From Pseudomonadota bacterium (GTDB lineage: Bacteria > Pseudomonadota > Gammaproteobacteria > SURF-13), in NCBI GenBank assembly GCA_027624315.1, contig JAQBXX010000002.1, positions 7,852 to 71,851 on the forward strand: 64,000 bases of DNA, given 5' to 3'. Position numbers and translations under genes: made by a program. How positions within the stretch are numbered: position 1 is the first letter of the stretch; the number at the start of each line of letters is the position of its first letter. Below, piece after piece: positions 15,065 through 30,106 of the stretch. Under the pieces are notes generated by a model. It was given only the letters and a program-made list of their open reading frames with translations. It ran no database searches and was not told where the DNA came from.

Positions 15065-15901
15065 ATGCCAGACTTCCCTAACGTAGCCAACGACCCCTTG
15101 GTGAAAATCCGCGGTCTGCGCTTTGCGCGCGGCGAGCGCGTGATCTTCGACGGGATCGATATCGACATCCCGCGCGGCAAGATTACCGCCATCATGGGGC
15201 CCTCCGGCACCGGCAAGACCACGTTGCTGCGCCTGATCAGCGGGCAGTTGCGCCCTCTTGCGGGCAGCATCGTGGTGGACGGCCAGCCCGTGCCGCAGCT
15301 CAAGCGCGCCGCGCTGTATCAATTGCGCAAGCGCATGGGTATGCTGTTTCAGAGCGGCGCGCTGCTCACCGATCTCGATGTATTCGACAACGTGGCGTTT
15401 CCGCTGCGCGAGCACACCCAACTGCCGGAGATGCTGATCCGCGATCTGGTGCTGATGAAGCTGCAGGCGGTCGGCCTGCGCGGTGCGCGTCACCTCATGG
15501 CGAGCGAGCTCTCCGGCGGCATGGCGCGGCGCGTGGCGCTGGCGCGCGCCATCGCGCTCGACCCGATGATGATCATGTACGACGAGCCGTTCACCGGGCA
15601 GGATCCGATCTCGCTCGGCATCATCGTGCAACTGATCCACGCGCTCAACGAGGCGCTCGGCCTGACCAGTATCATCGTCTCGCATGACGTGCACGAAACC
15701 GCCGCCATCGCCGATTACATCTACGTACTCTCCGGCGGCAAGGTGATCGGCCACGGCACGCCCGTTGATCTCGCCCACTCAGACTCACCCTGGGTGCGGC
15801 AGTTTATGCAGGGGCTGGCGGACGGCCCGGTGCCGTTCCACTACCCGGCGGCGGATTACGCGGAAGAACTGCTGAACAATCAGCCCGGGGCCGCGCCATG
15901 A
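15065..15901 (+). CDS. mlaF: Phospholipid ABC transporter ATP-binding protein MlaF
   Basis: Very close to E. coli MlaF throughout ([37 protein letters not shown]-terminal [10 protein letters not shown]). Confidence 0.9.
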
Positions 15902-16680
15902 TTAACCGGCTGCAAACCCTTGGCCGCTGGGGCCTGATACGCTTCGAGCGTCTCGGGCGCGGCTCCCTGTTTTTAATGCAGGTGCTCGCCGGCCTGCCCG
16001 CGCTGCTGTTGCGCCCGCGCCTCGCGCTGCAGCAGGTCTACGCCACCGGCGTGCTGTCGCTGGTCATCATTATCGTGTCCGGCCTGTTTGTCGGCATGGT
16101 GCTGGGCCTGCAGGGCTATAATACGCTGGTGGATTTCGGCGCCGAGGAGTCGCTCGGCGTGCTGGTGGCGCTGTCGCTGGTGCGCGAACTGGGGCCGGTA
16201 ATCGCGGCGCTGCTGTTCGCGGGACGCGCGGGCTCCGCGCTCACCGCCGAGATCGGCCTGATGAAGGCGACGGAACAGCTGTCCGCCATGGAGATGATGG
16301 CGGTGGACCCGCTGGCGCGCGTGATCGCGCCGCGCCTGCTGGGCGGCTTTATCGCCATGCCGCTGCTGGCGGCGATGTTCAGCGCGGTGGGTGTGTTCGG
16401 CGGCTATTTTGTCGGCGTGGGGCTGTTGGGCGTGGATGACGGCTCGTTCTGGTCGCAGATGCAGTCCAAGGTCGAGCTGCAGGAAGACATCCTGAACGGC
16501 GTCATCAAGAGCGTGGTGTTCGGCTTCGTGGTGACTTGGATCGCGGTGTTCGAGGGCTACGACACGGTGCCAACCTCGGAGGGCATCAGCCGCGCCACCA
16601 CGCGTACCGTGGTAAACAGCTCGCTCGCGGTGCTGGGGCTGGATTTTGTATTGACTGCGTTAATGTTCGGAGACTTTTAA
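15898..16680 (+). CDS. mlaE: Phospholipid ABC transporter permease MlaE
   Basis: 260 aa and polytopic. It overlaps the mlaF stop by 4 bp, in the canonical position. Confidence 0.9.
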
Positions 16681-26892: not shown

Positions 26893-27723
26893 ATGGGTCT
26901 AGCCAAACGCATCATCCCCTGCCTGGACGTGGACAACGGCCGTGTCGTCAAGGGCGTGCGCTTTGTGGAACTGCGCGACGCGGGCGATCCGGTGGAGATC
27001 GCACAGCGCTATAACGACGCCGGCGCCGACGAGCTGACCTTTCTCGACATCACCGCCAGCTCCGACGAGCGCGCCACCATGCTCCACGTGGTCGAAGAAG
27101 TCGCCAGCCGGGTATTCATTCCGCTCACCGTCGGCGGTGGCATCCGCAGCATCAGTGACATCCGGCGCATGCTCAACGCCGGCGCCGACAAGGTAGGCAT
27201 CAACACCGCCGCAGTTGCCAACCCGGAATTCGTCAAAGAAGCCGCCGAGCGCTTCGGCTCACAGTGCATTGTGGTGGCGGTGGACGCCAAACAAATCCCC
27301 CGGCCTACGGCCACCCCCTTTTTAAAGGGGGTCGAGCAAAGCGAGGGGGGATTTGGTTGCAACGGGGGGATTTCGCGCTGGGAGGTCTTCACCCACGGCG
27401 GCCGCAAAGCCACCGGCATTGACGTGATTGAGTGGGCGAAAAAGATGACGGATTACGGCGCAGGCGAAATCCTCCTCACCAGCATGGACCGCGACGGCAC
27501 CAAGAGCGGCTTCGACATCGCACTCACGCGCGCCGTGAGCGAGGCGGTAAGCGTGCCGGTGATCGCCTCCGGTGGCGTCGGCAACCTCGACCATCTGGTC
27601 GCAGGCATTCTGGAAGGCAAGGCCGACGCCGTACTCGCCGCCAGCATCTTCCACTTCGGCGAGTACACCATCGCCCAGGCCAAGCAGCGCATGGCCGAAT
27701 GCGGCATTGAAGTCAGGATATAA
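26893..27723 (+). CDS. hisF: Imidazole glycerol phosphate synthase, cyclase subunit, carrying a ~20-aa in-frame insertion encoded by a MITE-like repeat
   Basis: [19 protein letters not shown]...[11 protein letters not shown]. 276 aa versus about 255 aa typical. The extra segment [28 protein letters not shown] lies between the conserved DAK and RWEVFTHGG. Confidence 0.9.
27292..27355. repeat. 64-bp MITE/REP-like palindromic element, same family as 2562-2628, inserted in-frame within hisF
   Basis: CAAATCCCCCGGCCTACGGCCACCCCCTTTTTAAAGGGGGTCGAGCAAAGCGAGGGGGGATTTG is almost identical to the intergenic copy downstream of mpl, including the terminal inverted repeats. Confidence 0.6.
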
Positions 27724-27867
27724 AAAGACCTCGGCCTGCCCCGCTACGCCTGCTGCGACTGTTTTTTTGAAGCCTGTGTTATTACAGTGCTTGGCCCCAA
27801 AGCGAAGCACCTGATAACATCAAAATACAAGATGTGATCCCTGTGAGCTCGATAACGAGAAGTCCCC

Positions 27868-29556
27868 ATGACCGACACTCTACAAGCTACTCCAGCCATT
27901 CAGCCTGAGAAACCTGTGCTGTTGCAACCGGACAATCACAACAAGAAATATGAAGCACTCTTCGTGGAGATCGACACCGGCCAGATCAAGCTTCCGATAT
28001 TCCAGCGCGAGTTTGTCTGGGAGAAGGAGCAGTCGGCCAAGCTGATTGATTCGATACTCAAAGGTTTCCCGATCGGCACTTTCATCTTCTGGAAAACCAA
28101 GGAGGAATTGCGCAGCTACAAAGAGGTGGGCAACCACAAGCTGCCAGAGACCCAACAGGGCGACTACGTGCAGTACATCTTGGACGGCCAGCAGCGCATT
28201 ACCTCTTTGTATGCGATCCGTAAGGGCATCCGCATTACCAAGGACGGCAAGGAGATCGACTACCGCGATATCTTCATCAATCTGGACCACGACCAGGAAA
28301 ACGATGAGCAGATAGTAGTGACGGAGAGGCAGGAAGAGAAGCGTTATTTGTCGGTGCATCGGTTACTGACCAGCCAGGTCACGGATCTGCTGGATGATTT
28401 TCCCAGCCGTGAAACGCTCAAGCAGATCGAAGCCTACAAGGGCAAGCTGACCAACTACGATTTCTCAAGCATCACAATCAAGGATTACCCCATTGAGGTA
28501 GCTTGCGAGGTGTTTTCGCGAATCAATACTGGCGGCAAGGCGCTGACGGTGTTCGAGATCATGGTGGCCAAGACCTACGACGAGGCAAAGGGCTTTGACC
28601 TGGCGGAAAAATACGAGCTGCTGCGCGATGGTTCGGACGAGGAGAAGGAGTGCCTGGTGGCGGCCAAATTCGAGACGCTCCCTGAATCCATCATCATGCA
28701 ATGCGTGGCGGCGATCACGCTGAGAGCGGTGCGCAGCAAGGATATTCTGAAAATCCGTCGCGAGACCTTCATCGCCAACTGGGAGCCGATGAAGGCCGCG
28801 CTATTTATGGCCATCGATTTTCTTCGCTCGGAGTTGCGGGTGCCGGTTTCGCAGCTTGTGCCCTATCCCGCGCTGCTGGTTCCGCTGACCTATTTCTTCC
28901 ATGTCACCGGCAACAAGAAACCAGCCAACGAGCAGGCGCGCTTGCTGGAACAGCTATTCTACTGGGTGGGGCTGACCGAGCGTTATAGTTCCGCCACGGA
29001 ATCCAAGCTTGGCGAGGATTTCAACAAGATCGACAGCATCATCAAGGGCGCGACGCCGAATTATTCCAACCTTGAATTAACCGTGGATCCAAAGGTCATC
29101 GAGACAACACAGTTTTCAGCTGGCAATGCTTACTGCAAGGCGATTCTGTGCTTGCTGGCTTATCATCAGCCCAAGTCCTTTGATACCAATGGCATCGTGA
29201 TTCTTGACAACAGCAACCTGAAAATTGCTACCAGCCGCAACTATCATCACTTCTTCCCGAAGAAATATCTGGAGGAGCACCACAAGGGCAAGGAGCCGAA
29301 CCTCATCGCCAACATTACCCTGATCGATGGCTACTCGAACAAGCATCGCATCGGGAAGAAAGCGCCCAGCGAGTACATCGGGAAATTCGAGAAAGACAAC
29401 AAAGAGCTGGCCGATACGTTCAAGACGCATCTCATCAAGGATATGGATGGTTATGGGATCAGGTTGGACGACTATGAAAAATGTATCCAACAGCGGGCGA
29501 ATGCGATTGCCCTAGCCTTGAATGTGAAGCTGATGTCGATGACACCAGCCATGTAG
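27868..29556 (+). CDS. DUF262 (ParB/Srx-like, DGQQR) plus DUF1524 (His-Me finger/HNH-like) protein, a GmrSD-family type IV restriction endonuclease-like candidate defense gene
   Basis: 562 aa. N-terminal part: [32 protein letters not shown]...[14 protein letters not shown] (DUF262). C-terminal part: [11 protein letters not shown]...[19 protein letters not shown] (DUF1524). GC is about 50-53%, against about 65% in the flanking DNA. Confidence 0.8.
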
Positions 29557-29630
29557 GGTGGGCACGTTTTTCTGCCCACGCGGAATCAAAACAGCGTGGG
29601 CAGGCGAAAGACCTGTCTGCCCACCCTACG
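29557..29630 (+). terminator. Two tandem GC-rich stem-loops (GTGGGCA..TGCCCAC and GTGGGCAG..CTGCCCAC), enclosed by a longer 12-bp pairing GTAGGGTGGGCA/TGCCCACCCTAC
   Basis: Immediately after the stop of the DUF262/DUF1524 gene. There is no clear U-tract, so it may be a rho-independent-like stabiliser or terminator. Confidence 0.4.
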
Positions 29631-29713
29631 TGGTTGATTGCAGATTGTGCTGGTGGACTTTAGCCACCCGCTGCCTGATACTTTATGGCCTTCAAACTTG
29701 CTTTAATCCGCCC

Positions 29714-30106
29714 ATGACACACGACTGGTTAGCTGAAATCCGCTGGGACGAGCAGGGCCTCGCGCCGGTGATTGTGCAGGAGGCTGCGAGCGGCAAGGTG
29801 CTGATGCTGGCCTGGATGAACCGCGCGGCGCTGGAAGAGACCGTGCGGCGGGGCGAGGCGGTGTATTGGTCGCGCTCGCGCCAGCGTCTGTGGCACAAGG
29901 GCGAAAGCTCCGGCCATGTGCAGCGGGTGAAGGATATCCGCCTCGACTGCGACGGCGATGCGCTGCTGCTCAGTGTGGAGCAGGAGGGCGGCATCGCCTG
30001 CCATACGGGCCGCCACAACTGCTTCTTCCACCGGCTTGAGGGCACGCGCTGGGTGGCGGTAGACCCGGTATTAAAGGACCCCAGCCTCATATATAATAAG
30101 GGCTGA
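29714..30106 (+). CDS. hisI: Phosphoribosyl-AMP cyclohydrolase
   Basis: Start at [23 protein letters not shown], with the metal-binding CHTG/C motifs. The longer track ORF (29558) begins upstream in non-coding hairpin DNA. Confidence 0.9.

Follow-up and report, generated by a model that had tools for sequence, protein, structure and literature searches.

Results

A GmrSD-family ORF lies between hisF and hisI

The window (the whole stretch of 64,000 nucleotides analysed here) contains a complete ORF that starts with ATG, runs for 562 codons and is bounded exactly by positions 27868 and 29556 of the + strand. It lies within a his operon, in which the gene order, all on the + strand, is hisD, hisC, hisB, hisH, hisA, hisF, the ORF, hisI, hisE, a HIT-family gene and tatA/B/C. 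This his-operon position was absent from the first-pass annotation, which had described the product as a stand-alone DUF262-DUF1524 nuclease. The features of the locus are listed below.

26893-27723, + strand: hisF, the upstream flanking gene (Pfam His_biosynth, E=1.7e-88)
27756-29548, + strand: horizontally acquired DNA (gene cassette) defined by blastn homology, comprising the gene and 112 bp of its own upstream DNA, minus the last ~8 original codons
27868-29556, + strand: complete ORF of 562 aa, putative type IV restriction enzyme of the GmrSD family (BrxU/HEC-05-like)
27958-28572, + strand: N-terminal DUF262 / ParB-Srx-like domain, a predicted NTPase (aa 31-235)
28039-28053, + strand: KLIDS motif (aa 58-62)
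28183-28197, + strand: DGQQR motif (aa 106-110)
28573-29187, + strand: predicted alpha-helical linker or middle region (aa ~236-440), placed from the helices of an AlphaFold2 model and the HMMER alignment to BrxU
29188-29535, + strand: divergent DUF1524 / His-Me (HNH-type) domain, a predicted nuclease (aa ~441-556)
29245-29373, + strand: putative core nuclease motif, H460-H461-F-F-P464 ... N478, N482 ... N491 ... E502
29546-29636, + strand: 91-nt extended palindromic hairpin at the 3' junction (inverted repeats; RNA fold of -61.7 kcal/mol, z = -7.9)
29714-30106, + strand: hisI, the downstream flanking gene (Pfam PRA-CH, E=7e-36; gene calls in an independent assembly, L088/L095)

The ORF is not a chance reading frame, because more than 5,000 homologous proteins scored at E<1e-5 in a database homologue search and 369 genome loci in one-genome-per-species data encode a relative (full-length identity, 44-85%). 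These loci span the Proteobacteria, Acidobacteriota, Chloroflexota, Cyanobacteria, Bacillota, Bacteroidota, CPR and archaea, which marks a large family that has undergone wide transfer. Only one relative was found in 2.9 million viral contigs, and this near-absence is consistent with a host-side gene.

The gap between hisF and hisI is 1,990 bp here, compared to -7 to 221 bp in 38 of 39 related metagenomic loci; these statistics were drawn from metagenomic loci in which a related hisF is followed by hisI, and the HisF relatives are only 68-77% identical. Some seemingly long matches to HisF were rejected as insertions, since they turned out to be HSPs between the HisA and HisF paralogues. The inserted DNA has a GC content of 51.9%, whereas hisF and hisI on either side have 61.8% and 64.4%. 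Run SRR2027830, assembled independently in Logan (L088/L095), yields the identical gene order, which implies that the locus is not an assembly chimera. An exact-match search returned nothing for HisF and only the same two contigs for HisI, and no strain-level "empty site" was found. One further locus (L171) carries an unrelated 292-aa ORF inside its hisF-hisI spacer, which indicates that the site tolerates insertions.

The gene is solitary in the 64-kb window. A PADLOC scan of the 64 window ORFs detected no Hsd, BREX, Hma, Dnd or Ssp component and no PDC-M55A/B, and tblastn searches with HsdM, HsdS and HsdR gave no match in the window. What the scan did return was generic: besides matches to the LmuA and PDC-M35A profiles, there were matches that traced to a radical-SAM protein, a HIT protein, an HtrA-like protease and an ABC ATPase. 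The strongest match in the window, to "mad3/mad8", was rejected as a defence partner; it is an ABC-transporter-type ATPase (15065-15898) with a Walker A motif and LSGGM. The large genes of the window are housekeeping genes, such as ileS, murJ, a Mur ligase gene, rho and the gene for glycogen phosphorylase. The scan thus agrees with the first-pass annotation that the window holds no methyltransferase, BREX, Dnd or Ssp partner.

Domain organization of the 562-aa protein

All of the peptide motifs previously quoted for this protein are present in the 562-aa product, with IFQREFVW at aa 44-51 and the others at aa 104-117, 458-468 and 482-500. The DUF262 N-domain was borne out by a Pfam profile search, in which PF03235 (GmrSD_N/DUF262) matched aa 31-235 with E=2.5e-31 and a score of 109.8 bits (cut-off, 33.2). 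Within this domain, residues F45, Q46, R47, D61, S62 and D106-R110 are invariant in two family alignments, one of 73 sequences and one of 146.

The assignment of the C-terminus is less direct. Of the two Pfam profiles proposed earlier as a check, only PF03235 was found: PF07510 (DUF1524/GmrSD_C) gave no match on the protein itself, even at E<=1, and the precomputed annotation of all 120 closest database homologues likewise lists PF03235 alone. In full-length homologues with 45-52% identity to the window protein, the corresponding region does exceed the gathering threshold of PF07510, as at a Bacillus locus (L063; 26.2 bits against a cut-off of 23) and a Methanosarcina locus (L038; 25.2 bits), and PF07510 is precomputed on 6 further homologues. 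Moreover, the PADLOC profile for HEC-05, the BrxU system (PDLC04151), covers aa 31-555 of the protein (model positions 31-593 of 600) with E=1.2e-32. Residues H460, H461, P464, N478 and N482 are invariant in both family alignments, and N491 is invariant among the 73 members and nearly so among the 146. Together with the fold of the structure model described below, these observations lead us to assign the C-terminus as a predicted divergent DUF1524/His-Me finger. The earlier claim of such a domain is therefore upheld by the motif, by the full-length HEC-05 coverage, by the PF07510-positive homologues and by the modelled fold, and not by a direct Pfam match.

The motif itself reads HH-x2-P, with His460 in place of the Asp or Glu of the canonical (D/E)H-x2-P, and this substitution at the first position probably explains why the Pfam model misses the HH-x2-P clade. 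Members of this clade are 76-97% identical across proteobacterial genera, and identity between bacteria and archaea is ~45-50%.

Structure model and comparison with BrxU

An AlphaFold2 monomer model built on 146 sequences reached a mean pLDDT of 88 and a pTM of 0.81. The sequence diversity of the family set came from a homologue search seeded with a mid-family member (L043); a search with a diverse family profile recovered the ≥76% clade once more and did not broaden the set. A first structure prediction, built on 9 near-identical sequences, had a pLDDT of 39 and was discarded. In a Foldseek comparison with the PDB, BrxU was the sole significant match (E=2.9e-16), with a full-length alignment, and its entry 7p9k ranked first in both the sequence (HMMER) and the structure (Foldseek) comparisons; this is the outcome of the structural comparison with BrxU suggested earlier. 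The global TM-score is low (0.39) because the domain orientations differ between the two structures.

In the model, helices span aa ~209-432, mostly with pLDDT >85, and aa 203-345 align to BrxU residues 222-359 by HMMER. An alpha-helical linker of 200-400 residues is typical of the GmrSD family (Machnicka et al., PMC4619093). The central ~250 residues had been put forward as a possible new specificity module; this suggestion is not sustained, and the region appears from model and alignment to be the usual helical linker of the family, with nothing novel at the present level of analysis.

BrxU of Escherichia fergusonii pEFER (PDB 7p9k/7p9m) has the same three parts as the window protein: a DUF262 NTPase, a helical linker and a DUF1524 HNH domain. 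The motifs also correspond. RLFDS of BrxU (with S42) is equivalent to KLIDS, DGQQR is found in both proteins, DHIYP (D474/H475) is equivalent to HHFFP, and among the downstream Asn and Glu residues, N482/N491 of the window protein correspond to N509 and N518/N519 of BrxU and E502 to E528. These equivalents include residues that were selected for mutagenesis in BrxU (D474/H475, N519 and E528; PMC8565348). The two proteins differ in several respects. Structure-based identity is only ~18-20%, which implies that substrate specificity cannot be transferred from one to the other; the window protein has His rather than Asp at the first nuclease-motif position and a shorter segment between the HH-x2-P motif and the N-x3-N strand. 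Both kinds of protein are often found inside larger defence operons, whereas the window gene stands in a housekeeping operon and not in a BREX locus, with no BREX or Hma components among the 64 window ORFs.

The founding type IV enzyme, Eco94GmrSD / EcoCT GmrSD, which targets glc-hmC DNA, belongs to the same family of single polypeptides with DUF262 and DUF1524 domains. BrxU and GmrSD share just 13% identity (PMC8565348), so the window protein is a remote relative of GmrSD at best. SspE and DndI (PDB 6jiv, 7dri, 9jfl) are phosphorothioate-sensing DUF262-DUF1524 defence proteins; the window lacks sspABCD and dnd genes, and the SspE profiles matched the window protein weakly, over only ~80 N-terminal residues (aa ~40-118; best E=7.9e-07).

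Acquisition of the gene as a single-gene cassette

The limits of blastn homology resolve the boundaries of the insertion. Homology to the locus of the nearest relative (L094; 97% protein identity), in which the gene stands after a DUF4325 gene, covers positions 27756-29548 of the window at 94.5%, and homology to a relative embedded in a restriction-modification (R-M) operon (L089; 94% identity) covers positions 27852-29546. These limits imply a mobile unit made up of the ORF together with at most 112 bp of its own upstream DNA. We conclude that the locus results from horizontal acquisition of a ~1.8-kb single-gene cassette of foreign origin.

At the 3' junction, the last ~8 original codons have been lost and the protein is otherwise full-length; it ends in TPAM, compared to TPVQAADAEKNI in relatives. 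The final 3 codons and the stop codon come from the 91-nt hairpin, and the cassette break coincides with the foot of the hairpin. No T-run and no terminator call were found in the hairpin, and no Rfam family scored above threshold for it. We also considered membership in a REP family, which is not obvious; the motif is unique within the window. The hairpin probably stems from the native hisF-hisI spacer, of which about 32 + 165 bp is left over, within the normal range. Integration of the cassette would have taken place by illegitimate recombination at the hairpin base. Neither a target-site duplication nor a conserved target sequence was found at the junctions. The source lineage would probably have carried the gene in a type I R-M operon or a defence island.

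Having landed in the hisF-hisI spacer in operon orientation, the gene may be transcribed by read-through, from the 112-bp upstream region, or both. Read-through from the his operon is plausible because the gene has the same orientation and no intrinsic terminator was called between hisF and the gene. The 112-bp region contains an imperfect inverted repeat that is also present in L094, and no sigma-70 consensus or promoter-like site was found upstream of the gene.

The loss of the last 8 codons and the lack of a detectable sigma-70-like promoter raise the question of whether illegitimate recombination, by removing the 3' end and the native context, left behind a stranded, non-functional remnant or a pseudogene in the making. 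Pseudogenised copies may exist in the family; tblastn showed an in-match stop codon in 4 of 80 genome loci (L035, L039, L042, L048 and L067, less start-extension artefacts). Several findings speak against such a fate for the window copy. Its ORF has no interruption and retains all of the residues that are invariant in the family. The tail that it lacks would follow the last predicted helix, in a stretch whose sequence and length vary among relatives, and read-through transcription is available, as noted above. Finally, dN/dS is 0.115 relative to the nearest relative, L094 (dS, 0.136), 0.058 relative to L089 and 0.02-0.06 relative to more distant relatives. These ratios (0.02-0.12) reveal purifying selection, which indicates a functional gene, and we regard a decaying remnant as very unlikely.

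The precisely delimited single-ORF cassette has moved between settings that are unrelated to one another, namely downstream of hsdS, downstream of a DUF4325 gene and in the hisF-hisI spacer, which would fit a protein that recognizes some other DNA feature or acts in another way, either as a phosphorothioate-sensing nicking enzyme like SspE/DndI or as a selfish, homing-type HNH nuclease that aids its own mobility. The limited reach of the SspE matches and the absence of ssp and dnd genes from the 64 window ORFs argue against the first version, and the heterogeneous insertion sites and the lack of a target-site duplication or conserved target sequence at the junctions argue against the second. 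In addition, the large NTPase-linker-HNH architecture is unlike that of known homing endonucleases. Of the readings weighed in this study, we find this one the hardest to credit.

Relatives occupy varied neighbourhoods

In the closest clade (75-94% identity), the gene often stands between hsdS and hsdR in the same orientation, and about half of the members are embedded in R-M operons in this way (L001, L002, L005, L009-L011, L015, L017, L018 and L089). The M, S and R subunits encoded beside these relatives are bona fide, canonical type I subunits. A Schlafen/AlbA_2-HATPase gene is sometimes also present in the hsdS-hsdR-embedded loci, and a link or fusion to Schlafen/AlbA_2 recurs in the family. 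Embedding of GmrSD-like genes, as independently acting defence genes, in type I R-M, Hma and BREX operons has been described (Payne et al., bioRxiv 10.1101/2024.01.29.577857); the closest relatives fit the hsdS-hsdR pattern, and the window copy instead lies in a biosynthetic operon.

This embedding suggests another role, that of an accessory of type I R-M systems, such as a back-up or guard that acts when Hsd is blocked; such a protein would depend on hsd genes elsewhere or have no function without them. The frequent hsdS-hsdR position of the closest relatives that have context and the authenticity of the neighbouring subunits favour it, as does the best PADLOC match of the window protein, which is to PDC-M55C (E=1.4e-54, aa 29-473), a component of an uncharacterised multi-gene candidate system. 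PDC-M55A/B were found neither among the 64 window ORFs nor among the tested neighbours of relatives, and the idea that the PDC-M55 partners are the Hsd subunits was rejected, since the neighbours are canonical type I M, S and R proteins. A search of the literature found no mention of PDC-M55.

Wider sampling weakens the case for an accessory role. Hsd neighbours occur at only about one-fifth of 73 species-level loci, and many of the 73 have purely housekeeping neighbours, such as alaS, COQ7, catalase and gcvP; at most loci the neighbours are unrelated. The upstream neighbour is BrxL once and Type ISP once, and the adjoining genes of selected close relatives encode a Type IIG enzyme (L012), a mad3-like ATPase (L014) or a Gabija/PARIS-like ATPase (L090). 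At L008, the gene has been kept while the downstream SLFN gene and hsdR have been reduced to fragments. The varied neighbours of the 73 loci, together with L008, imply that there is no obligatory partner. Likewise, the window copy has remained under purifying selection after relocation to a window with no Hsd or PDC-M55A/B match, BrxU cleaves modified DNAs in vitro (PMC8565348), and BrxU/HEC-05 was cloned and assayed by itself as a candidate system (bioRxiv 10.1101/2024.01.29.577857). An obligate type I accessory is therefore unlikely in our judgment.

These data also qualify two earlier statements. The gene is alone in the window, as the first-pass annotation had said, and this is not unusual, given the unrelated genes that flank most of its homologues at the 73 species-level loci. 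That annotation had further raised the prospect of a truncated fragment of a multi-gene system; the nearest relatives are indeed common in type I R-M operons, and the window protein is full-length apart from its last 8 residues.

Predicted function

The product is most likely an autonomous, single-polypeptide type IV (modification-dependent) restriction enzyme of the GmrSD family and of the BrxU/HEC-05 kind. This is in essence the function proposed in the first-pass annotation, and the PF03235 match, the HEC-05 profile, the conserved motifs and the predicted fold make it the best supported one for an activity that is itself predicted. The GmrSD family carries out NTP-dependent cleavage of modified DNA (PMC4619093; PMC8565348). 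BrxU undergoes an ATP-driven switch from an intertwined dimer to a monomer (PMC8565348), and the HEC-05 homologue that was assayed is 99.2% identical to BrxU (bioRxiv 10.1101/2024.01.29.577857). The enzymatic activity, substrate and anti-phage role of the window protein are predicted by analogy with BrxU. The DUF262 ParB-like domain would bind and hydrolyse NTP through its KLIDS and DGQQR motifs, and this would drive a conformational or oligomeric cycle that is passed on through the helical linker. The His-Me (HNH-type) domain would then cleave DNA with modified bases, for example phage DNA containing 5hmC or glucosyl-hmC, with H461 as the putative general base and N482, N491 and E502 supporting the metal site. 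An unmodified host chromosome would be spared, and no methyltransferase would be needed.

Several points weigh against this assignment: the His at the first catalytic-motif position, the lack of a direct PF07510 match, the low identity to BrxU, the PDC-M55C profile as best PADLOC match, the embedding of about half of the closest clade in R-M operons, which would allow functional coupling, the lost tail and the lack of a promoter-like site. A more speculative extension, to which we attach only a slim chance, holds that the HH-x2-P clade is a distinct and unusually conserved GmrSD-like branch that moves as a single-ORF cassette, possibly aided by its own nuclease, and lodges in essential operons, where it is hard to lose or silence. 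Defence expression would then be coupled to the amino-acid-starvation control of his. The substrate or trigger may also differ from that of BrxU; the recurrent Schlafen/AlbA_2 fusion in the family hints at such a difference.

Discussion

The gene between hisF and hisI belongs to a large defence family that is already known, and within that family it is ordinary in all but one respect, its insertion into the his operon. It does not represent a new type of system: GmrSD/BrxU-like enzymes have been characterised structurally and biochemically, and their embedding in R-M operons has been published. What the locus provides is a boundary-resolved case in which a defence gene has probably left a defence operon and has settled, as a single-gene cassette, in a core biosynthetic operon. 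Such copies would escape discovery methods based on defence islands. Furthermore, the large and highly conserved HH-x2-P subfamily escapes the Pfam DUF1524 model, and automated annotation consequently labels its members only as "DUF262". As a minor point, the association with Schlafen/AlbA_2 in the family might merit a separate look.

Sequences at the borders of the inserted DNA

In the window, the foreign DNA meets its 3' flank exactly at an extended, near-perfect hairpin, which contributes the last three codons and the stop codon of the GmrSD-like gene. This hairpin lacks a T-run and matches none of the Rfam families, and its motif occurs only once across the 64-kb window. It may be a palindrome native to the spacer that served as a hotspot for recombination or stabilised the mRNA. 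At the other end, an imperfect inverted repeat enclosing a 9-bp hairpin (27787-27810) lies in the 112-bp upstream region that was co-transferred with the gene. The outer repeat, TGTTATT/AATAACA, is common to the window and to L094 (~1225-1262), the locus with the 97%-identical relative, and the repeat may serve as an operator or regulatory element.

Window 27777-27819: imperfect inverted repeat, TGTTATTACAG ... CTGATAACA
Window 29546-29636: 91-nt hairpin (-61.7 kcal/mol, z = -7.9)

The hisF-hisI junction occasionally accepts foreign genes: the 961-bp hisF-hisI gap of a metagenomic his operon (L171) also holds an ORF unrelated to the window gene. The N-terminus of its product is hydrophobic and resembles a signal peptide.

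L171:4837-5715: 292-aa ORF in the hisF-hisI spacer

Contexts of related genes

In a Polaromonas MAG (L008:164-2607), all that follows the 85%-identical GmrSD-like gene is fragments of SLFN (58 aa) and HsdR (98 aa). We conclude that a type I R-M operon has decayed at this locus, leaving only the GmrSD-like gene intact. Relatives of 78-88% identity that lie outside type I R-M operons occupy other defence or mobile contexts.

L090:2720-8491 and L091:2090-3355: integrase-bounded islands with SMC/AAA_15 (Gabija/PARIS-like) ATPases and RhuM
L012:1742-4900: Type IIG R-M enzyme near a close relative
L014:6973-9927: mad3-like ATPase near a close relative

Within the window itself, an ABC-type ATPase (15065-16680 region; adjoining ORF at 15898-16680) matched the PADLOC model mad3 at 2.8e-29. 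This protein carries a Walker motif and the signature LSGGMARR, and we rejected it as a defence gene, the match being of a false-positive type that arises from generic ABC ATPase similarity.

Domain associations in the GmrSD-like family

When compared with the family profile, the recently deposited PDB entries 20yv/20yw (an 818-aa 'DUF262 domain-containing protein') matched over the N-domain only (E~1e-6). Association of GmrSD-like proteins with Schlafen is recurrent and takes two forms: a C-terminal Schlafen/AlbA_2 (PF04326) fusion on a variant of ~705-720 aa, and, in some loci embedded in type I R-M operons, a separate SLFN_AlbA_2+HATPase_c_4 gene immediately 3' of the GmrSD-like gene.

L061, L062, L064, L068-L072, L077, L078, L081, L083, L084 and L087: fusion variant (example, L078:9992-12106)
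L005:9707-11347 and L018:11686-13329: association in type I R-M-embedded loci
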